Sequence record: SRR22947727_867
Length of the DNA stretch: 43,304 bases
Direction: 5' to 3' (one strand)
The notes beneath the pieces were generated by a model. The model was not told where the DNA came from, searched no databases, and saw nothing but the letters and a program-made list of their open reading frames with translations. The position numbers and the translations under genes are program-made. Shown piece after piece: positions 1,076 through 37,866 of the stretch (the stretch's first letter is position 1; every line of letters starts with the position of its first letter).

Positions 1076-1648
1076 CTAGCCCAGTGCGCCAATCGCCGGC
1101 GCGAGCGCCCGAAAGGCCTGGCCGCGATGAGACAGCTCATCTTTCTGCTCTGCCGTGAGCTCCGCTGACGTCACTGAGTGCCCCTCGGGAATAAACACGG
1201 GGTCATAGCCAAAGCCGCCTGATCCCGCGGGGTGGTGGGCAAGCGAGCCCTCCCACCGCTTCTCGATAACCACCTCTCCCCCGTCGTGGACGAGTGCTGC
1301 GGCGCAGACGAAGGCCGCTGCACGATCCTCCACTCCTGCCATCTCTGCGAGAACTTTTGCCGTGTTATCCGCATCTAACCCGGTCTCGGCGTAACGCGCG
1401 GAGAAAATTCCTGGTCGACCCTCCAGCGCGCGTACTTCGAGTCCGGAATCATCGGCGATGGCGGGGTGGCCCGTGGCCGCAAACGCGGAACGCGCTTTGA
1501 TCAGAGCGTTCGCCGAAAAAGTGTCGCCATCTTCCACCGGTGAGTCCTCCGGGGAGGGCTCGAGCGTGATCCCGGGAATGAGATCCTCCAGAATTCTCTG
1601 CAATTCCAGGACTTTGTGGGCGTTCTTGGTGCCCACCACGATGCGCAT
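1076..1648 (-). CDS. rdgB: Non-canonical purine NTP pyrophosphatase (RdgB/HAM1)
   Basis: TKNAHK, ENA-like [29 protein letters not shown] and SHRGQA motifs; directly downstream of rph. ATG at 1648 preferred over TTG at 1654. Confidence 0.95.
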
Positions 1649-1650
1649 AC

Positions 1651-2379
1651 TCAAGAAATTCCGAGGGCTTCGCGCTGAATCCGGGCAAGCTCGGTGGTGC
1701 CGGCAAGCGCCAAATCCAACAAACGGTCCAGTTCCGCACGCTCAAAGGGTGTCCCCTCCGCGGTTCCTTGCACCTCGACGAAGGACCCGCGACCGGTGAC
1801 GACCACGTTCATGTCCGTGTCAGCAGACACGTCTTCGACATAGGCAAGATCCAACAGCGGTGTCCCGTCGACGATGCCGACACTGATCGCGGCAACAGAG
1901 TCCCGCAGTGGAGCAGCGGACTTTTTCACGTGGCCGTGTTCGATGGCCCAGCTCAGCGAGTCCGCGAGCGCCACATACGCTCCGGTGATGGCAGCCGTCC
2001 TGGTGCCGCCATCGGCTTGCAACACATCGCAGTCGATGACGATGGTGTTCTCCCCCAGCTGGTTGAGGTCAATAATGCCGCGCAGTGAGCGCCCGATCAG
2101 TCGAGAAATTTCGTGGGTGCGACCGCCAATCTTGCCTTTCACGGACTCGCGATCCATGCGGTCGTTCGTCGATCGGGGAAGCATGCCGTACTCGGCCGTC
2201 ACCCACCCACGACCTTTACCGTTCAACCAGCGCGGAACACCGGGGGTGAAGGAGGCGGTGCAGAGGACTTTGGTGTTACCAAAGGAAATCAGCGCGCTCC
2301 CCTCGGCTTGCTCACTCCAGCCGCGCTCAATCGATACGGGGCGAAGCTCACTGGCGAGTCGGCCATCAGCGCGGGTCAT
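1651..2379 (-). CDS. rph: Ribonuclease PH
   Basis: [52 protein letters not shown] and EVQGTAE motifs. Confidence 0.98.
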
Positions 2380-9774: not shown

Positions 9775-10581
9775 CTAACATCGCCCTGCAACGAGGGTTT
9801 CGGAGTGGCATCCCCGGTCAACGAGAACCGGGGTCACGCTGAGGACCTCAACAACCTTTTCGCCACCGGATCGAGTGATGTGACCGGGCAAGGATTGAAA
9901 AGCTCCCCCGTCGAAGCGATAGGACGCTTCGTAGGTCACCTCGAGGCTGATCCGATAATCCCCGGAGATCTCATACCTGTGGGAGGTCGGAGTCACACTG
10001 AACTGACGCGTCCCCCAGGACGCACCCGGTGAGCTATCCACCCTGGTTGTGGCATCGCCAAAACTCCAGGTGTACGCGACCGGGGTGAATCGCACCTCGA
10101 TCGGCCATCCCAGCAAATCCCCCGATTCTGTGGTCGCTGTGGACGTGGAGAAGACGTTCGTGGGCAGTAGCGGAAGACTCCACCCGGTGGGTTCCTGGAC
10201 AAACCCCGCGCCCCCTGGTGCGAACTGCGCCACATCACTCAGTGATTGTGGCGGAGTAGGTTCTTCTCGTTCCACCACGTCCCTGGAGGGTGACGACCCC
10301 CGGCAGAGGCCAGCAATTTTGACCTCACACTGTGCGGAGCCCAACACTGGGTCTCGGGGCGGAGGGGGACTCCAAGACCCTCGGTAGCCACCTCCCGAAC
10401 TACCCGGGGTGACCTGCGTTCCGGACACGGTGACACCCTCACTGGTCACCACCGCACCCACGCCTGAGCACTGACCACTCGTTCGCTCCGCGTGGGTGCA
10501 CTCACTCGCGAGGGCCGGTGTGGTGGTGCCAAGGGCAAGAGCAATGCCCAGAACCGCCGTGGCCATCACCTTCAGAGACAT
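9775..10581 (-). CDS. Secreted hypothetical protein with PKD-like beta-sandwich domain
   Basis: Signal peptide ending ALA; three short Cys pairs; Pro-rich linker; FTPVAYTWSFGD...SHRY...GDYRISLEVTY resembles PKD. Start overlaps the stop of the upstream lipoprotein gene. Confidence 0.7.
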   Translation of the reverse strand: MSLKVMATAVLGIALALGTTTPALASECTHAERTSGQCSGVGAVVTSEGVTVSGTQVTPGSSGGGYRGSWSPPPPRDPVLGSAQCEVKIAGLCRGSSPSRDVVEREEPTPPQSLSDVAQFAPGGAGFVQEPTGWSLPLLPTNVFSTSTATTESGDLLGWPIEVRFTPVAYTWSFGDATTRVDSSPGASWGTRQFSVTPTSHRYEISGDYRISLEVTYEASYRFDGGAFQSLPGHITRSGGEKVVEVLSVTPVLVDRGCHSETLVAGRC

Positions 10582-11237
10582 GAGTACACACCCCACCACG
10601 GCTCTGAACTACTCAGAAGCAGTGAGTCCATCGAGGGACCCTCGAACCAGAACACCACGGCCTGAGGCGAGCCCCAGGACACCCGAGGGTCCTCCAGGAA
10701 CTCTTCAATAGCCGCCCAGTCGGCTGCTTCGCCCTCGAAATCTTCATACGCCGGATGCCACTGCCACAGAATGTCGGGTGGATCAGGACTCTCAGAAGGA
10801 AAAACAATGACTCTCGTGGTGTCCACGCAGGCGATGACGCCAACCTCGACGGTGTCTCTCGGTGTGAGTCGCGCACTTTGCACCAGGAACCGAGACACCT
10901 CACTCGTTCCTTGGGTGCGAAAGCCCTCCTCGACGAAGTAGGCAAAGCCCTCTTGCTCCACCACCCACCATTCAGGGGACACCAGGGGTTTCATCGATTG
11001 GGGATTTACCCCGCCCTCGGTAGTGATCTGGTCAGAGAGCGCAACGTAGCGAAGTACTGCTTCACCGGTGACCTCGGCTGCGTCCTCATAAAAATCTGCC
11101 GGTAGCCCACCAGGAACATGGCCCAAGAGAACCGCGGGAGGCGGCTCATCCGCCCCGGGGAGAACAATCTCTTGCTCCAGGGTCTGGCACCCCACCAGGG
11201 CGAGAAGAGGAAGAGTAATGAGGAGGAGAGGCTTCAT
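10572..11237 (-). CDS. Hypothetical acidic lipoprotein
   Basis: MKPLLLITLPLLALVGC lipobox; very acidic; internal ACVD and C-terminal Cys; leaderless-type promoter upstream. Confidence 0.75.
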   Translation of the reverse strand: MKPLLLITLPLLALVGCQTLEQEIVLPGADEPPPAVLLGHVPGGLPADFYEDAAEVTGEAVLRYVALSDQITTEGGVNPQSMKPLVSPEWWVVEQEGFAYFVEEGFRTQGTSEVSRFLVQSARLTPRDTVEVGVIACVDTTRVIVFPSESPDPPDILWQWHPAYEDFEGEAADWAAIEEFLEDPRVSWGSPQAVVFWFEGPSMDSLLLSSSEPWWGVYSCL

Positions 11238-11243
11238 CCTCGG

Positions 11244-11286
11244 AGTGTAGAAAGAAGGAGAAACACCCCGCAGATTTTCTCCACAG
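11244..11286 (-). promoter_or_regulatory. Promoter: CTGTGGAGAA box, 27 nt, TACACT (-10), 6 nt, ATG
   Basis: Read directly from the sequence; same geometry as 17794-17836. Confidence 0.55.
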
Positions 11287-11291
11287 GCAAC

Positions 11292-12095
11292 CTAGAGCGG
11301 GGTCACCCCAAAGCGTCGAGCCGCCGACATGGGGTTTGCCTCGCGCACTTCGTGGAGCAGTGCGCTCTCTAGTTCGCCATGAGCAACCCCAGCATCGACA
11401 CCTGCCGTGGCGACAACATGACCACGGGGGTCCACAATCTGTGAGAGGCCCACACCCGAGGGCTCCGGGTGGTCACTGGCCACCACAAATGTTTGAGTCT
11501 CAATAGCCCGGGCGGTGAGTAAGGTGTCAAAATGGTGAGCTTTTGACTCCCCCGGCACCCACTGCGCTGCGGTCACGATGACCTCTGCTCCGGCATCCAC
11601 AAGACGCCTCGAGACTTCAGGAAAGCGCAGGTCATAACAGGCCATCATCCCAATCTGAAGACCACCGCAGGAGAACAATTCGGGCTCGCTGAGGGCTCCT
11701 GGTCGAATCCAGGTGGACTCTGTGGCGCCAAAGGCGTCATAGAGGTGAATCTTCTCGGCACGAGCAAGAATTCCCTCTGGCCCCACCGCTACCTGCGTGT
11801 TGGCCGGTCGCTCATCACCCAGCGAGCGCAGCAGCATCCCCGCGACGATGACCATCCCTCCGTGCCCGGTCGAGAGCGCTGTGAGTCCTCGGACAAATTC
11901 TCCCTCAGCGCTTTCGGCGGACGCAGCCCACTGATCACCCAAGGTGGAGCTGAAGGCATGACTGTACTCGGGAAAGACCACCATCTCAGAGCCTGCCTCC
12001 GCAGCTTCCTGGACGAAGGGCGCCATGGCTTCCAAGTTCGCCGCAGCGCTCTCTCCCGGTGCGAACTGCACCACAGTGACGCGAAGGGTTGACAT
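11292..12095 (-). CDS. Carbon-nitrogen hydrolase (Nit1/YbeM-like amidase)
   Basis: Catalytic E-K-C triad in FPEY, KIHLYDAF and CYDLRFPE; ARAIETQ. Confidence 0.9.
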   Translation of the reverse strand: MSTLRVTVVQFAPGESAAANLEAMAPFVQEAAEAGSEMVVFPEYSHAFSSTLGDQWAASAESAEGEFVRGLTALSTGHGGMVIVAGMLLRSLGDERPANTQVAVGPEGILARAEKIHLYDAFGATESTWIRPGALSEPELFSCGGLQIGMMACYDLRFPEVSRRLVDAGAEVIVTAAQWVPGESKAHHFDTLLTARAIETQTFVVASDHPEPSGVGLSQIVDPRGHVVATAGVDAGVAHGELESALLHEVREANPMSAARRFGVTPL

Positions 12096-12117
12096 AGCTC
12101 AAGCCTAAGCGGGAAAC

Positions 12118-12147
12118 ACAAAGCCCCCTCCTGAGAGGGGGCTTTGT
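12118..12147 (-). terminator. Intrinsic terminator hairpin downstream of tRNA-fMet
   Basis: Perfect 13-bp inverted repeat ACAAAGCCCCCTC-N4-GAGGGGGCTTTGT followed by GTTT on the minus strand, 2 nt after the tRNA CCA. Confidence 0.85.
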
Positions 12148-12149
12148 CA

Positions 12150-12226
12150 TGGTTGCGGGGGCAGGATTTGAACCTACGACCTCTGGGTTATGAGCCCAGC
12201 GAGCTACCGAACTGCTCCACCCCGCG
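12150..12226 (-). tRNA. tRNA-fMet (CAT), initiator
   Basis: CGCGGGGTGGAGCAGTTCGGTAGCTCGCTGGGCTCATAACCCAGAGGTCGTAGGTTCAAATCCTGCCCCCGCAACCA: C1:A72 mismatch, GGG/CCC anticodon stem, encoded CCA. -10 TACCAT at 12238-12243. Confidence 0.97.
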
Positions 12227-12268
12227 GCGAAGCACCCATGGTAACACGCTTGGAGCCTGGCTGTCCTC

Positions 12269-15178
12269 CTACTGGTCGCTCAGCACCAGGGCACGAGCGA
12301 GAGCATCGGTCAGTCTCTGGTCAGCTTCAGCAGCCCCTAGAAGGTCGTTAGCCCGGTAGGCGGCTTCACGATCACTCAATGCCTGGCGGGCATCAGCAAG
12401 CGCAGCCTGGAGCTCAGTGGAGATCACAATGCCGGTGTCGGAATCGCTGTCAGCACCTGCATCCGTGTCGGGAGCGGGGGCAGGAGCGGTGGTCTCCTCA
12501 GGAACTTCGACAGTGCCCGGAGCGCCATCGGAGTCTCCGGCTTCAGCACCGGAATCTCCTCCGAAGAGGGCATCCAGGGCTTGATCCAGGGTGTCCTCGA
12601 AGGCAATCTTTTCACCGAAGGACACGAGGATCTTCCGCAACAGCGGATAGGAGGTGTCACCAGTGGAGCGAACATAGACGGGCTGGACGTAGAGCAAACC
12701 GTCACCGACCGGCAGAGTCAGCAAGTTACCCGAGATGACCTCGGTTTGTCCCTGACGCAGAAGGTTCAACTGCTGACCGACGTTGGCGTCAGAGTCAAAC
12801 TGTGCCTGCACCTGGCCGGGTCCTGGAACGGTGGTCTGCTTGGGCAAACGCAAGAGCGTCAGCTTGCCGTAGTCATCCCCGTAATCCGAGTTAGCCGCCA
12901 GGTAGCCATAGAGAACGTTTCTCGATGCCTCACCGGTGGCTCTCGGAATGAAAGTGGAGTACAGGGAGAACGCGGGGCTCTCGGTGCCTGGAACCTGCAT
13001 CGTCAGGTAGTAGGCGGGCTGGAGCCTCGGCGCTGCAGGGTTAGAGATGGGGTCGTTGGGGGTGACCCACTCGTCCTCACTGGAGTAGAAGGTTCCAGAA
13101 TCGGTCACGTGGTAGGCGCCCAGGATGTTGCGCTGAACCTTGAACAGGTCAGAGGGGTAGCGCACGTGATCCAGGAGCTGCTCCGTCATCTCGGACTGAT
13201 CCTTCAAGCTGGCGGGGAACACTCGGTTCCACGCGGTCAACAGCGGATCCTCGGTGTCCCAGGCATACAGGGTGACCTCACCGGAGTAGGCATCCACGGT
13301 CGCCTTGACGGAGTTCCGCATGTAGTTCACGGTGTCAAAGGCCAACTGAGGTGTCGGACGGTAGGTATCGGCAATGGCCTCAGAGACCTGAACCGGTGTG
13401 GAGTAGGGGTAATCCGCACTGGTTGTGTACCCATCCACAATCCAGACCAGTCGACCGTCCACCACTGCGGGATAGGGGTCGTTGTCCAAGGTGAGATAGG
13501 GAGCAACCTTGCCCACGCGGGTGGCGGGGTGGCGGTCGTAGAGAATCTGGGAGTCGCTGGTGATCGCATCCGAGAGGATGATCTGCTCCGACTGGAACTT
13601 AAGCGCATACAGCAGCTGCTTGAAGAGGTTGTCGAGTTCTGGACCGCCATCACCACTGAAGGTGTAGGTCGCGTTGTTCTCGTTGCCCTCACCACCGGAG
13701 GGGAAGTCGAGCTCCAGCGGGGTGGAACCCTCGGGTCCGCCCACAATCGAGTACTCCGGTGAGTTCTCTCCGAAGTAAATACGGGGCTCGTATTCACCAA
13801 GCACTTCGGAGACAGGAATTCCGGACTCAATGAATCGCGGCTGACCATCTTCAGTGCGCTGGTTTCCGTACGCGGCCACCAAGCCATACCCGTGGGTATA
13901 CACAATGGTGTTGTTGTACCAGGACTGCGAGTTCAAACCATCGAGGTTGATCTCTCGAACGGCCAAGACCGTGTCAGTCCGCTCACCGTTGACGTCGTAG
14001 CGCCCGACATCCAAGTAGGTGGGGAAGCGGTAGTACTGACGGAACTGCTCGAGCTGTGCGAACGCATCCGTCACCAACGCGGGGTCAATGATGCGGATGT
14101 TCGCGGTGGTTTCCGCATCTGCGCGGAGTGCTCCAGCAGAGGTGTCCGTGGAGGCCTCGTAGTTGATTTCCACGATGTCTGAGACACCGTAGGCGTCCCT
14201 CGTGGCGTCAATGTTGCGGTCAATGAACTCCGCCTCCAGGGTCCTGGCACTCGGGTCGACCTGGAATCGCTGGATCAAGCTGGGGTAGGCGAGGCCAAGG
14301 ACCAGGCCGGACACGATGTAGAGCGCAGTTCCGACAACCGCGAGACGCCAGCGTCCGATGATGGCGGTAACGAGGAAGAGCAGAGCCACAAGGACGGCGA
14401 TACCCGCCATGATGGCGCGAGCCGGAATGGTGGCATTCGCTTCGGTGTAGCCAGCTCCAAAGGCCAGGAAGCCGGAGCTGGCAGTGACAAGCGCCTCATA
14501 CTGCTGGAGCCAGAGGTTGACGCCCTGGGCGGCAAAGTAGAGAACACCCAGAATGGCCAGCTGAACGCGCATCGTCCGAGAAATGCGGACCTCACGTCCC
14601 GTAACGGAAATCGATCCGTACAGGAAACCGGTCGCTGCTGCACCCAAGGCCGAGAGCACAAGAATCGTCGACACATAGGAAATCACGCTGGAGTAGACGG
14701 GCAACTCGAAAATGTAGAAGCCGACATCCAGACCAAACTCTGGATCTACGGTGCCAAACGGTTCGCGGTTCATCCACAGCAGGAACTGCGGCCAGGTGTT
14801 GGCAGAACCCAAGCCAGAGAAGAGTGCGAGCAGGGCAGGAATTCCGAGCATCGCTGCACGCCGGATGGGGTCGATGATTTGGCGATACCGGTCGAGTTCG
14901 TTGGAGAGCTTCGCGTAGACCGGACGGAACCGGAACGCCAGCGAGATACTCAGCCAGACGGGAAGGAACATCGTGATGAACCCGATCAGGAACATCGCTA
15001 CCGAGCCGCCCCACGAGGTCAGAAGGACCTCGAGGTAGCCCACCTGGTCAAACCACAACACCTCGGTGTAGAGCGAGGAGAAGAGGAAGAACCCTCCCAG
15101 CACTGCAGCCAACACGGCCACGGTAATGATGAGGGGAAGTCTGCGACGGTCGAACAACTGCGGTACGGCTTGAGACAC
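12269..15178 (-). CDS. UPF0182 family membrane protein
   Basis: YTEVLWF, FG..DP.FG.D.GFY.F.LP, NIDATR.AYG, YTHGYG, PRIYFGE, NYMRNSVKATVDAY, HVRYP.DLF, GNLLTLP and LYVQPVY motifs; usual neighbour of tRNA-Met. Confidence 0.95.
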   Translation of the reverse strand: MSQAVPQLFDRRRLPLIITVAVLAAVLGGFFLFSSLYTEVLWFDQVGYLEVLLTSWGGSVAMFLIGFITMFLPVWLSISLAFRFRPVYAKLSNELDRYRQIIDPIRRAAMLGIPALLALFSGLGSANTWPQFLLWMNREPFGTVDPEFGLDVGFYIFELPVYSSVISYVSTILVLSALGAAATGFLYGSISVTGREVRISRTMRVQLAILGVLYFAAQGVNLWLQQYEALVTASSGFLAFGAGYTEANATIPARAIMAGIAVLVALLFLVTAIIGRWRLAVVGTALYIVSGLVLGLAYPSLIQRFQVDPSARTLEAEFIDRNIDATRDAYGVSDIVEINYEASTDTSAGALRADAETTANIRIIDPALVTDAFAQLEQFRQYYRFPTYLDVGRYDVNGERTDTVLAVREINLDGLNSQSWYNNTIVYTHGYGLVAAYGNQRTEDGQPRFIESGIPVSEVLGEYEPRIYFGENSPEYSIVGGPEGSTPLELDFPSGGEGNENNATYTFSGDGGPELDNLFKQLLYALKFQSEQIILSDAITSDSQILYDRHPATRVGKVAPYLTLDNDPYPAVVDGRLVWIVDGYTTSADYPYSTPVQVSEAIADTYRPTPQLAFDTVNYMRNSVKATVDAYSGEVTLYAWDTEDPLLTAWNRVFPASLKDQSEMTEQLLDHVRYPSDLFKVQRNILGAYHVTDSGTFYSSEDEWVTPNDPISNPAAPRLQPAYYLTMQVPGTESPAFSLYSTFIPRATGEASRNVLYGYLAANSDYGDDYGKLTLLRLPKQTTVPGPGQVQAQFDSDANVGQQLNLLRQGQTEVISGNLLTLPVGDGLLYVQPVYVRSTGDTSYPLLRKILVSFGEKIAFEDTLDQALDALFGGDSGAEAGDSDGAPGTVEVPEETTAPAPAPDTDAGADSDSDTGIVISTELQAALADARQALSDREAAYRANDLLGAAEADQRLTDALARALVLSDQ

Positions 15179-15241
15179 GAGTGAGTACTCTCCTTGGCGG
15201 GGTCAGGAACTTCAGTCTACAAAGAGTGGCTGGGGGAACGC

Positions 15242-16342
15242 CTAAGACCCGGCACAGCGGGGAAGCTCATCACCCGCACGAATACTCTCCAAGGCATCAA
15301 GAGCACCCTCGAGTGTCGCCACGGGAATCACCTGAAGGCCATCGGGGATGTGGCCGAGGAAGTCAGGACAGTTATCGGCAGGAGCCAAGAACCAGGCCGC
15401 GCCGTCATTCAACGCGCCATGCATTTTGTGACGAATACCACCAATCGGCCCGACAAGACCCTGGGCATCGATGGTTCCCGTCCCCGCAATGACCTGACCC
15501 GCGGTGATGTCCTCCACTGTCAACTTCTCGACGATGCCGAGCGCAAACATGAGCCCAGCGCTGGGTCCCCCCACGTTCTCGAGAGCGATGTCAACATCGA
15601 GAGGAAAATCGTAAGTTCCAGAGACAAGAATGCCCACCATGGGAACTCGCTCCGGACCCTCCGACATTCGCGGAAGAACCTGCACGTCAACCGGGGAGCC
15701 CTCTCGCTCCACAGTGATGGTCATCGGCGTGATGACACCCGAGTCCGCGATCATCTCCCGAAAACTGCTGACGGTGTCCACACTCATCCCGTTGGCTTGA
15801 AGGATGACGTCACCGGAAAGGAGAACACCTTCGCTGGGTCCACCCTCCAGGGCTTGGGACACCACCATCCGGCTGGTGTAAGCGATGCCGAGATAATCCA
15901 GGGCTGCCGCGACTGCCTCTTGTTGAGAGTTCTCCATCTCAATGGCAGCTGCTTCACGATTCTGCTCCACGGAAATTCCCGGCGGGTAGGCAACATCCAC
16001 CGGGATGACGGTCCGGGTGGGGTCAAACCATCCCTGCAGGACATCAAGCCACCCGGGCAAACTCTCGGGGTTTCCTGAGCGGGTCACCGTCGTCAAGAGC
16101 AGTGAACCGGTGGTCTCGTAGGTCTCCTCTCCAGAGATCAGGATCAGCTCCATCTCCTCATCGCCGACACTCACGGAGCCCAGGGTGTTGTAGGTGGGAC
16201 CCGGGTTATCGATGACGTAAGGCGCAGGAAAGAAAGACAAACCGATCACGATGGCCGCAGTAAAGATCAGCATGAGCCATCCCGCGAGACGGGAGCGTCG
16301 CTGAACCTGATCCGATGGATCCTCGGTTTCATAAATGGCCAC
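15242..16342 (-). CDS. PDZ-domain Lon-like S16 protease (YlbL type)
   Basis: TM helix followed by PYVI..PG, PDZ domain, GGPSAGLMFAL (catalytic Ser), AGTGTI and GPIGGI.HK (Lys). GTG 16342 has GGGGAG upstream. Confidence 0.9.
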   Translation of the reverse strand: MAIYETEDPSDQVQRRSRLAGWLMLIFTAAIVIGLSFFPAPYVIDNPGPTYNTLGSVSVGDEEMELILISGEETYETTGSLLLTTVTRSGNPESLPGWLDVLQGWFDPTRTVIPVDVAYPPGISVEQNREAAAIEMENSQQEAVAAALDYLGIAYTSRMVVSQALEGGPSEGVLLSGDVILQANGMSVDTVSSFREMIADSGVITPMTITVEREGSPVDVQVLPRMSEGPERVPMVGILVSGTYDFPLDVDIALENVGGPSAGLMFALGIVEKLTVEDITAGQVIAGTGTIDAQGLVGPIGGIRHKMHGALNDGAAWFLAPADNCPDFLGHIPDGLQVIPVATLEGALDALESIRAGDELPRCAGS

Positions 16343-16449
16343 TGGTGACTCCCCGCTTGATAACCGGGAAAGCATAGCCACGGAAACCGGGAACAAGCCG
16401 TTAGCGAAATCAGAGACTCCTGCACCGATCACCCTTGTACCGTGGTGTC

Positions 16450-17793
16450 ATGTCCGAGGACTCTGGCGATGACCCACGCTTTGGCGACGAAGAGTGGATG
16501 AAGGACGCCTTCCGAAAGTTTCTCAGTGGCGATGAGTCCTTCAACCCTGAAGAACTCATGAAAGCCGCGGGAATCAACGTCTCGCCCGAAGAACTGCAGA
16601 AGATGATGATGCAGCTCGGTACCTCTTTTGCTCCCGGCGGCGGGCTCAAACCGCAAGCCTCGAGGGATCACGCCGTCACGGTCGCCGGCGAGGGTTCGCT
16701 CCCGTTGGACCCTGCAACCCGCCAAGCCTTGAGCCAGGCCGCGACGGTGGCAGGCCTGTGGCTCACCGAGGTGACCGCTATCTCCGACCTTCCCGAGACT
16801 CCTGTGGTGGGCACCCGCGCTGAATGGGCCAGAGTCACTCTTCCCGTGTGGGAGGACATCGCCGACCCCGTCGCGACCGCTATCCCCCGGGCCATCTCCC
16901 AGATGATGGCAAGCCAAGCACCCGAGGACATGCAGGGACTCATTGGCGGAATGAGTGGACCGATGGAGCAAGTCTCCAAGAGCCTTTTCACGATGCAGCT
17001 CGCCGGAGCGGTCGGGAAACTCTCCGGAGAAGTCCTCTCTGGTGGCGATATCGGCATCCCGCTGGTCAGTGGCAGCGACGAATACGACGTGAAAGCCTTT
17101 CTGCTGGCCCAAAACATGCGAGCGTTTTCCCGCGACCTCGATGTCCCCCAGGAAGAAGCCGACATCTACCTCGCCACCCGAGAAATCGCACATGCGAGAC
17201 TCTTCCGCCATGCGAAATGGCTCCGCCTCCACATGATGAGCGCCATCCGAGATTTCGCCGGCGGCATCAGCATCGACCTCTCCCGCGTGATGGAACTCGC
17301 CGAGGATTTTGACCCCACCAACGCTGAGGCGATGAAGGAACTGTTGACGACGGGGGCGCTGCTTCCCGAGCGCACCGAGGAGCAAAACAGGGCCCTGGAG
17401 CGTCTCGAGGGAATGTTGGCACTTGTCGAAGGGTGGGTGGACCATGTCACCGGTCTCGCGACAGCCCGGTTACCAAAATCCGGCGCACTGGGAGAAGCCA
17501 TCCGACGTCGTCGCGCCAGCGGTGGACCCGCTGAACACGCCTTCTCCACCCTCGTCGGCTTGGAGCTTCGTCCCAGAAAACTCCGCGAAGCCAGTGCTCT
17601 GTGGGCGGAGATCCACCGGGAGCTGGGCTCTGAGGCGCGCGATGAACTCTGGCGCCACCCCGATACGTTGCCCCACCTCGACGACCTCGATAACCCGGGA
17701 GGCTTCCTCCAGCGGATTGCTCACCCGCCCGCTGATGACGACTTTGACCAAGCACTGCGCGAGCTCTTGGACGAGGAGACTCCCGAGTCCTAG
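16450..17793 (+). CDS. Zincin-like zinc-dependent metalloprotease (DUF2342-type)
   Basis: TRAEW, EVLSGGDIGIP, REIAHARLF, LVEGWVDHV, RRRASGGPAE, GLELRPR and W.HPD.LP motifs. ATG 16450 lies 6 nt after TACCGT. Confidence 0.88.
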   Translation: MSEDSGDDPRFGDEEWMKDAFRKFLSGDESFNPEELMKAAGINVSPEELQKMMMQLGTSFAPGGGLKPQASRDHAVTVAGEGSLPLDPATRQALSQAATVAGLWLTEVTAISDLPETPVVGTRAEWARVTLPVWEDIADPVATAIPRAISQMMASQAPEDMQGLIGGMSGPMEQVSKSLFTMQLAGAVGKLSGEVLSGGDIGIPLVSGSDEYDVKAFLLAQNMRAFSRDLDVPQEEADIYLATREIAHARLFRHAKWLRLHMMSAIRDFAGGISIDLSRVMELAEDFDPTNAEAMKELLTTGALLPERTEEQNRALERLEGMLALVEGWVDHVTGLATARLPKSGALGEAIRRRRASGGPAEHAFSTLVGLELRPRKLREASALWAEIHRELGSEARDELWRHPDTLPHLDDLDNPGGFLQRIAHPPADDDFDQALRELLDEETPES

Positions 17794-17836
17794 CTGTGGA
17801 TAAATTCCCCGCCGCGAGGCGGGTTTCCGTCACCAT
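17794..17836 (+). promoter_or_regulatory. Promoter: CTGTGGATAA box (a perfect DnaA-box TTATCCACA on the minus strand), 27 nt, CACCAT (-10-like), 6 nt, ATG
   Basis: Read directly from the sequence; same geometry as 11244-11286. Confidence 0.55.
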
Positions 17837-17842
17837 GGCGGA

Positions 17843-18589
17843 ATGTCACGACTCCTCCATCTCGACTCGTCTCTTCCGGTCGTGTGGCGCTCACCCGAGG
17901 GCCTCCAAATCGGTGCTGATCCGCCGATAGCGCTCATCGACTCGATCGATCAGCGCTACCTCCCGGTACTCGCAGCCCTCCACCGAGGCATTAGCGAGGA
18001 GGGCTACGACGCAATCGCCTCCCACGAGGGCCTCACTCCTGAGGAGACCGATCTCTTCCTTGACGAGCTCTCGGGGGCGCTCACCCCGCGAACCCCCGAC
18101 GCGCTCCCCCGGTTGAGCATTACCGGGTCCACCACTCACGTGGCCTCTTTTGCCCGCGTCCTTCGGGACGTGGGCTTTCTCGAAGCGGACCCTCCTGACG
18201 AGGCACTGCTGGTCTCATCTTTCGTGATGCCAGCGTCTGCCTATCGCCCCTGGCTCGCCACCGACGTCCCCCACACTCCCATCATCATGAGTGACCAGTC
18301 GATGACGGTGGGCCCTCGCGTAACGCCCGGTGTTGGTCCGTGTCTGCAGTGCGTCTGGGAGAACCATGCGGCTCGCGAACCAGCGCTCGTTGCTCTGGCG
18401 ACTCAGCTCTCGACTCTCTCCGCTGCGACAGATACCCCGGCATTCCACGCGGTGGCAGCCTGGCACACCCGAGATCTTGTGCGCGCTGCAGAGCAAGGGC
18501 TCACCTACCGGATTGATCGCTACACCCAAAAAGTTCAGACCTACCACGAGGAACCCTCAGGCTCCTGTCTCTGTCGCTCGCTTGGCTAG
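17843..18589 (+). CDS. Hypothetical protein, Rv3196-like ThiF/TOMM-scaffold-like domain
   Basis: VWRSPEGLQIG N-terminus; VPHTP...VGPRVTPGVGPCLQC and terminal CLC resemble the E1-like/TOMM C-protein Cys pattern; conserved position next to uvrD2. Confidence 0.7.
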   Translation: MSRLLHLDSSLPVVWRSPEGLQIGADPPIALIDSIDQRYLPVLAALHRGISEEGYDAIASHEGLTPEETDLFLDELSGALTPRTPDALPRLSITGSTTHVASFARVLRDVGFLEADPPDEALLVSSFVMPASAYRPWLATDVPHTPIIMSDQSMTVGPRVTPGVGPCLQCVWENHAAREPALVALATQLSTLSAATDTPAFHAVAAWHTRDLVRAAEQGLTYRIDRYTQKVQTYHEEPSGSCLCRSLG

Positions 18590-34409: not shown

Positions 34410-34520
34410 GGTGCTCTGACAGTATCAGCGCAGTTGTCCAGCTCCCTGGCTCCACCCCGAAAATCCACCAGACGCTCAGGGGCTCCCTCGCAACAACACA
34501 GCATGACTCACACTGCAGGG

Positions 34521-37819: not shown

Positions 37820-37866
37820 CGCACCCGGTCAGCGCATCATGGTCTCAGGTCTGGTGCTGTGGACAG

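Follow-up and report, generated by a model that had tools for sequence, protein, structure and literature searches.

The stretch of DNA analysed here (the window; 43,304 nucleotides (nt) of the sequence record SRR22947727_867) is ordinary core chromosome of an actinobacterium of high guanine-plus-cytosine (GC) content (61%). Two of its genes, one encoding a lipoprotein and the other a protein resembling Rv3196, are each preceded by a short sequence element, the box, that lies at the same place relative to the start codon at both sites (table 1). A preliminary description of the window had drawn attention to this pair, and its account of the layout is confirmed on the sequence: downstream of each box there are 27 nt, a hexamer (TACACT at site 1, CACCAT at site 2), 6 nt and then the ATG (at 11237 and 17843, respectively), the box beginning 49 nt before the start codon in both cases. 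The arrangement TANNNT-6-ATG, on which our genome scans were built, is matched by site 1; site 2 agrees with it at A2 and T6 only, and the hexamers of its orthologues read CACCAT or CACGAT.

Table 1. Positions of the two boxes and of the features surrounding them in the window; aa, amino acids.
Feature	Position	Strand	Remarks
PKD-domain protein gene	9775..10599	(-)	overlaps the end of the lipoprotein gene by 28 nt; PKD match weak (E 2e-4)
Lipoprotein gene, 221 aa	10572..11237	(-)	signal peptide and LVGC lipobox right at the ATG
-10 hexamer TACACT	11244..11249	(-)	TANNNT type; 6 nt from the ATG
Box 1, CTGTGGAGAA	11277..11286	(-)	-49 to -40 relative to the A of the ATG
CN_hydrolase gene	11292..12095	(-)	upstream; stop codon 5 nt before box 1
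tRNA-Met gene	12150..12226		between the CN_hydrolase and UPF0182 genes
Zincin_2 gene	16435..17793	(+)	upstream; stop codon adjoins box 2
Box 2, CTGTGGATAA	17794..17803	(+)	-49 to -40 relative to the A of the ATG
GC hairpin CCCGCC-GCGA-GGCGGG, then TTT	17808..17826	(+)	within the 27-nt spacer of site 2, between box and hexamer
-10-like hexamer CACCAT	17831..17836	(+)	A at position 2 and T at position 6 kept; first T absent
Rv3196-like gene, 248 aa	17843..18589	(+)	weak, sub-threshold likeness to TIGR03882; no Pfam family

Within the window the pattern CTGTGGANAA has two matches, and these are the two boxes; 0.32 are expected by chance, and two or more were present in 3 of 100 shuffled sequences. 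The related word TGTGGANAA is found elsewhere in the window at 2966 and 30269, both within coding open reading frames. Such a modest excess, considered by itself, could be attributed to the coincidence of two chance 9-of-10 words, or to the common ancestry of a duplicated upstream segment. The comparison with related genomes leaves either explanation a practically negligible chance. In the nearest of these, G001 (1.2 Mb, 61% shared words), both sites are identical or nearly so, and a third gene carries the box at the same distance of 49 nt: a Peptidase_A24 prepilin peptidase gene located downstream of rpoC, with TAGGGT-6-ATG. We scanned 38 genomes of the genus for CTGTGGANAA-N(17-37)-TANNNT-N6-ATG, the control in this and every other scan being the reversed pattern, and found 34 matches, distributed over 25 of the genomes, against none in the control. 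Although the pattern allowed spacers from 17 to 37 nt, the spacer was 27 nt in 33 of these matches and 28 nt in the other. When only the core of the box was specified (TGTGG-N31-TANNNT-N6-ATG), the 38 genomes gave 64 matches against 5, in 33 genomes, and 50 of the 64 read TGTGGANAA; one base further away (TGTGG-N32-TANNNT-N6-ATG) there were 18 against 4, with few box-like words among them.

In five genomes the pattern was relaxed at the spacer, the hexamer, the gap and the start codon; there were 29 matches against 0, nearly all of which still had the 27-nt spacer, the 6-nt gap and ATG; when the start codon was dropped altogether few matches were added (16 against 0 in five genus genomes, 18 against 2 in five complete family genomes). 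Hence the class is a small one, of three to six promoters per genome, and it would nearly always be leaderless. A box before acs in G001 (L009), with a spacer of 30 nt and a leader of about 60 nt, falls outside it.

The same layout is found across the family. In its strict form it was matched 156 times in 301 family genomes, with a single match in the control, and these matches come from 111 genomes and 52 of 101 genera. A scan with free spacer length of the 121 family genomes that are at least 95% complete gave 97 matches against 0, in 70 genomes and 59 of 91 genera. The spacer was 25 nt in 10 of these, 26 nt in 31, 27 nt in 44, 28 nt in 4 and of some other length in 8, so that 89 of the 97 lie between 25 and 28 nt. 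The positional enrichment and the shared element at a fixed, activator-type position (about -48 to -40) that the preliminary description had anticipated are thus borne out in the genus and the family alike. So is conservation at orthologous promoters. Box 1 is unchanged at the orthologous site in G001, G016 and G053 and is kept before lipoprotein orthologues throughout the family, and box 2 stands at equal spacing before its orthologues in G001 and G019 (loci L030 and L027); judged by the near-identity of the start region, it is also kept in G016 and G053. Between orthologues the spacers diverge while box and hexamer stay, and between the different groups of target genes both the spacers and the downstream proteins are unrelated. 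With reversed-pattern controls near zero in every genus and family scan, coincidence and shared ancestry are already refuted. The promoter class is real and it is conserved.

In a phylum-wide sample of 401 genomes, four of the five family members were matched; outside the family there were 12 matches in 8 genomes, mostly reading TGTGGACAAC, and 3 control matches. A scan of all species returned at least 119 stretches with the layout. Among the matches listed are Microbacterium, Cryobacterium, Salinibacterium, Rhodoglobus, Terrimesophilobacter, Aquiluna and Pontimonas, and also Knoellia, Actinoplanes, Marmoricola and others; because of the named records that carry the layout, the family is probably the Microbacteriaceae.

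What lies behind the box was examined at 80 family loci, taken from 150 of the 156 strict family matches. The lipoprotein family of site 1 accounts for 33 of these loci, a family of about 198 aa that begins MRWDNLFDDLE for 24 and Peptidase_A24 for 8; ALK_LTK_GRD proteins and DUF559 proteins are found at two loci each, a pilin-like protein at one, and 10 are singletons. Clustering of the downstream proteins by blastp gave 37 lipoproteins, 24 proteins of the ~198-aa family and 13 of Peptidase_A24, in addition to pilin-like, SAF and Rv3196-like groups. The lipoprotein of the window belongs to the 37-member cluster, the commonest target family of the promoter class, and the Rv3196-like protein clusters with those of L027 and L030. 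In the genus, the box precedes genes of the Tad pilus in two arrangements: T2SSF-T2SSF-box-pilin-TadE-TadE/G, where the pilin-like (Flp-like) gene encodes 60 aa, and a second unit, box-SAF (CpaB-like)-ParA/TadZ-like. The Rv3196-like gene and a large secreted protein are targets in this genus only. In four small-genome members of the family (L059, L061, L062, L065) the lipoprotein promoter comes right after a tRNA gene and a terminator hairpin, which makes the class one of free-standing promoters and not a feature of operon junctions.

The two largest target families are without an assigned function: searches of Pfam, NCBIfam and the Atlas gave none for either of them, the lipoprotein of the window having no Pfam or NCBIfam family and only actinobacterial hypothetical proteins in the Atlas. 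The ~198-aa family resembles a coiled coil joined to DUF2642-like barrels, unlike a DNA-binding protein. With one query it was not found in five genus genomes, a result that does not show its absence. In L033 a gene for 156 aa (1555-2025, minus strand) lies directly upstream of the box-SAF-TadZ unit; its product matches DUF2642 weakly and has motifs similar to those found in the ~198-aa family. Since this gene occupies that position and the ~198-aa family is a main target of the box in the rest of the bacterial family, a functional tie of the family to the Tad system is suggested. The ~198-aa promoters have conserved surroundings of their own (L075, L077, L088, L098, L102, L114, L123). From -80 to -49 a conserved GC hairpin, gcccc-loop-ggggc, abuts the box, and an inverted GTCCAC half-box lies about 15 nt upstream; further upstream there are another hairpin and a conserved word like 'actcaaGCAG', possibly the end of a conserved RNA gene.

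The box and its surroundings suggest how such a promoter might work. In the 80 family promoters the box is flanked by C at -49 (59/80) and at -39 (62/80), with T or T/C at -38 and -37, and C precedes the A at +1 in 58 of them. A -35 hexamer was not found in these 80 promoters, the relative entropy being at most 0.29 bits per position from -36 to -29, and a search for sigma-70 consensus promoters between 10500 and 18700 of the window found none. We propose a promoter made of two parts, of which the box is the upstream one: (C)TGTGGA-N-AA(C) at -48 to -40 would be followed by a non-conserved spacer, 27 nt in the genus and 25-28 nt across the family, by a sigma-A-type -10 hexamer (-12 to -7; TANNNT, or NANNNT at site 2), and by 6 nt and the ATG. 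The ATG itself would be the transcription start and the mRNA leaderless, as we read both the lipoprotein gene and the Rv3196-like gene to be, and the box would take the place of the -35 element. That its orientation and spacing are so constrained suggests that the bound protein touches RNA polymerase directly. With the centre of the box at about -44, a bound protein would be placed just upstream of where sigma region 4 is expected, and it may recruit or adapt the housekeeping RNA polymerase, either by a class-II-like activation or in a hybrid promoter of the 'sigma adaptation' kind. An alternative sigma factor was considered and rejected: in all three genus genomes inspected (G001, G016, G015) there are only two sigma-70-family factors, and the hexamer is of the sigma-A type. 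These two are the primary sigma factor and a small one whose open frame spans about 225 aa, or 316 aa in G015, which amounts to an extremely reduced transcription apparatus. Metatranscriptome contigs from four of 20 RNA runs span both promoters of the window, although contigs cannot show where transcripts start; the only strongly covered spot is the tRNA-Met gene, where loose ends from many organisms are found, as expected for a conserved tRNA.

At both sites of the window the box follows directly on a same-strand stop codon, and in that position a protein bound to it might serve as a roadblock that insulates the downstream promoter from read-through. It might equally be a repressor, since DnaA has been known above all for repressing promoters, that of its own gene among them (PMC8203912, accessible part), or the box might merely titrate DnaA; moreover, some viral contigs join the box to a complete TTGACA-16-TATAAT promoter that would need no activator. 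We nevertheless regard a negative or passive role of any of these kinds as unlikely. A site at -48 to -40 leaves the core promoter uncovered, the orientation is constant and the distance to the -10 hexamer varies by no more than about 1 bp over the whole family, as expected of a contact with RNA polymerase, and many instances lie behind tRNA genes or terminators, where there is no coding gene upstream.

The hairpin in the spacer of site 2 belongs to this local context. The 63 nt of the region have a minimum free energy of -26.1 kcal/mol (z -2.2), and similar hairpins are present in the spacers of the site 2 orthologues of G016 and G019. It has the look of a terminator belonging to the upstream Zincin_2 gene, and in that case box 2 would be transcribed within the 3' end of that gene. 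The surroundings of site 1 have no significant fold (z -0.5), and a simple scan for terminator-like sites returned 7 where 5.7 are expected. That the box is itself part of a terminator or of a structured RNA was rejected, since site 1 is unfolded, the hairpin of site 2 lies in the spacer and Rfam has no family in the seven box-bearing loci searched. Downstream of the two promoters, the PKD-domain gene is probably in the same operon as the lipoprotein gene, given their overlap, and the Rv3196-like gene, being followed by a convergent gene for a UvrD-type helicase, probably forms a monocistronic unit.

The identity of the protein that would read the box is suggested by the word itself. The consensus of the DnaA box is TTATCCACA, or TT[A/T]TNCACA. 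Site 2 reads TTATCCACA(G), a perfect match; the 9-mer of box 1 is TGTGGAGAA, whose other strand, TTCTCCACA(G), deviates only at the tolerant third position. The extended word of the promoters, CTGTGGATAACT, is the consensus DnaA box together with its flanks. A resemblance to DnaA boxes had been pointed out in the preliminary description, and it extends to the replication origin of this lineage. In G001 we located rnpA, yidC, dnaA and dnaN (the last two identified by Pfam), and both the rpmH-dnaA and the dnaA-dnaN spacers contain perfect TGTGGATAA boxes which, with the flanking C, read TGTGGATAAC. Nine family genomes have 29 perfect boxes beside dnaA; the C at +10 is present in 23 of these, as compared with 62 of the 80 promoter boxes, and the C at -1 in 16 of 29 as compared with 59 of 80. 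The remaining intergenic boxes of G001 are found at classical DnaA loci, namely between rplI and dnaB, before a ribonucleotide reductase gene and next to crgA. The 428-nt rplI-dnaB spacer has two direct boxes 44 nt apart (L001, G001:C1, 1501-1554), and the ribonucleotide reductase gene is preceded by an inverted pair, CTGTGGAAAAC ... GTTGTCCACAG (L011, G001:C42, about 1501-1530). Genes with the DnaA domain IV number one per genome in all five genus genomes inspected. Because the box is a consensus DnaA box with the flanking preference of the oriC boxes, we favour DnaA as the most likely reader, at about an even chance. If DnaA does read it, the availability of DnaA, and hence the status of replication, would gate the three to six promoters of each genome, that is, the Tad/Flp pilus genes (the pilin with TadE/TadG, CpaB-TadZ and the prepilin peptidase) and the lipoprotein of site 1, to which this genus would add the Rv3196-like gene of site 2 and the large secreted protein. 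For the account as a whole, a two-part leaderless promoter at which DnaA bound to the box activates the housekeeping RNA polymerase, we see belief and doubt as evenly balanced.

Several observations weigh against this reading. DnaA-controlled promoters usually have several boxes, and at these promoters there is a single one. The variable third position differs between the two settings: the 29 boxes beside dnaA have T in 25, A in 3, C in 1 and G in none, whereas T (49), G (15), C (10) and A (6) occur among the 80 promoter boxes of the family, and G (24), T (14), A (11) and C (1) among the 50 of the genus. The classical DnaA loci of G001 (rpmH-dnaA, dnaB and nrd) do not have the 27-nt geometry. 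As to the scans, G001 is a relative and not the window's own assembly, and the 34 and 156 strict matches come from related genomes, so that they are not independent counts and the letters fixed in the pattern are conserved by construction. Finally, many actinobacterial promoters are without a -35 consensus in any case (PMC8635444, accessible part), so that its absence here is no proof of dependence on an activator.

Some of these points would be accommodated if the promoter class and its activation were as we propose but the reader were a dedicated transcription factor of the Tad-pilus or competence programme, with a site that resembles or overlaps a DnaA box. A core regulon so small and functionally coherent (Tad pilus and surface proteins) is typical of a dedicated regulator, the single asymmetric box is not part of a cluster, and promoter boxes often have G at the variable position, where none of the 29 boxes beside dnaA has it. 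In Micrococcus luteus, moreover, mutations affecting com expression cluster at an HTH_17 gene beside a SAF(CpaB-like)-CpaE operon (PMC8467076, accessible part), and it is this type of operon that carries the box in our genus. No candidate for such a factor emerged, however. G001 has one clear HTH_17 gene, which is small, neighbours a bS22-like gene and has neither a box nor a link to Tad, and an HTH_17 regulator is thus unsupported in this genus; the ~198-aa family, as described above, does not look like a DNA binder; and MtrA was rejected as the reader, its motif being a degenerate direct repeat, c-G-T/A-n-A-C/T-c, that does not fit the box (PMC6265350, accessible part). The flanking preference, furthermore, equals that of the oriC boxes. 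A dedicated factor is the chief alternative to DnaA, but we hold it to be rather doubtful.

The occurrence of the layout before unrelated genes in other Actinobacteria, and in viral contigs, also speaks against a dedicated factor, and this spread fits a universal factor better than a pilus-specific one. Among the matches listed, DUF222 genes, which we take to encode the N-domain of 13E12-type HNH endonucleases, stand behind the layout in 7 of 45 otherwise unclassified high-GC matches from other Actinobacteria; the other classes found there are Ser/Thr kinases (3), WXG100/EspC-like proteins (2) and a SAF protein (1). These matches include L275, L284, L311, L335, L356, L383 and L384. Viral contigs gave 52 stretches against 31 in the reversed control, a modest excess in which both lists contain repeated near-identical phages. 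A number of low-GC viral contigs (L172, L175, L194, L195, L197, L199, L208, L212, L217 and others) read TGTGGATAAC-4 nt-TTGACA-16 nt-TATAAT-6 nt-ATG, some of them with a second box 12 nt upstream; in several phage groups the same geometry is combined with a full consensus promoter and a putative leaderless start. More tentatively, and with a confidence somewhat short of even, we would extend the DnaA reading further: DnaA may be a dedicated activator that, by way of one high-affinity box per promoter, acts on a distinct actinobacterial promoter class and directly licenses the Tad or competence-type pilus together with surface genes, the same design serving DUF222-HNH elements elsewhere and having been copied by phage early promoters.

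The preliminary description had suggested that surface genes and genes for DNA uptake are regulated together by the box. The first part of this suggestion stands, surface and Tad-pilus genes being its targets, but the second is not supported. The word CTGTGGACAG that had been related to the box before dprA reads CTGTCCACAG in the direction of dprA; its distance from the ATG is 47 nt, and no TANNNT stands in the required place. This near-palindrome, CTGTCCACAG/CTGTGGACAG, is a DnaA-box-like word at 37857-37866, where it directly follows the stop codon of the gene that precedes dprA. The TCCAC words before the M23 gene (34440-34471) point away from that gene, and the divergent ZIP gene does not have the layout either. 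Of the gene classes that had been put forward, tad genes do lie behind the box, but comEA and comEC are absent from the strict matches of the nearest genomes; neither these two nor dprA was found among the strict and relaxed matches in G001, G016 and G053, in a search that did not take the comEA and comEC promoters singly. In Micrococcus luteus the Tad pilus is reportedly the transformation pilus (PMC4322843). By analogy, the box may be linked to DNA uptake only indirectly, through the Tad pilus.

DnaA boxes that act in transcription outside oriC are known from the dnaA and nrdAB promoters of E. coli, from box clusters in B. subtilis, and from the autoregulation of dnaA in Streptomyces and mycobacteria. 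The present 9-mer is likewise the consensus box, and the same word with its flanking C is found at the oriC of this lineage; unlike those promoters, it occurs singly, its orientation and its distance from the -10 hexamer being fixed, at promoters with a putative leaderless start and no -35 element, in a layout that is family-wide and whose targets are pilus and surface genes. Sites of class II activators, such as CRP at -41.5, lambda cI at OR2/PRM and the PhoB boxes, resemble it in lying directly upstream of or overlapping the -35 region with strict helical phasing to the -10 hexamer, but those sites are dimeric palindromes or direct repeats and the present one is a single asymmetric 9-12-mer. 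The elements of competence regulons elsewhere (CRP-S/Sxy sites, ComK boxes and the ComX cin-box) are similar as short shared elements before pilus genes; they differ in sequence, in position and in the probable factor, and the dprA of the window is without the layout. The closest parallel in design is the 'sigma adaptation' promoters of PafBC in mycobacteria, where the element of a factor also stands at a fixed distance from TANNNT and the housekeeping sigma factor acts without a -35 consensus (PMC8635444, accessible part). That element, however, is tGTCgg-N10-tANNNT, centred at -26, and it is bound by a WYL-domain heterodimer that controls DNA-damage genes (same source and part). The box is accordingly not a PafBC/RecA-NDp motif, being another word, 27 and not 10 nt from the hexamer, with its centre at about -44.

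In the full-text literature that we searched, a scope that excludes subscription journals and supplementary files, the element is not described, and the promoter class is apparently new. DnaA is known to act as both an activator and a repressor (review PMC8203912, accessible part); in the accessible part of this 2021 review of DnaA as a transcription factor the words competence, pilus and Actinobacteria are absent. A 2026 paper on Micrococcus luteus (PMC12849477), in the part accessible, describes the regulators of competence and the Tad pilus in Actinomycetota as still to be identified and makes no mention of DnaA.

The element provides a concrete and mutable cis-site and a short list of targets, two of which are protein families of unknown function. 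Were a protein other than DnaA to read it, the box would be a bait for the missing regulator. If DnaA reads it, pilus and surface genes would be turned on directly by the replication initiator, by way of a hybrid promoter of a kind so far known only for PafBC, and this would be the second case in the Actinobacteria of a housekeeping RNA polymerase that is re-aimed. The status of replication would then be tied to the surface, and possibly to DNA uptake, in streamlined marine bacteria that have only two sigma factors, and pilus and DNA-uptake functions would be subject to a previously undescribed replication-state checkpoint.

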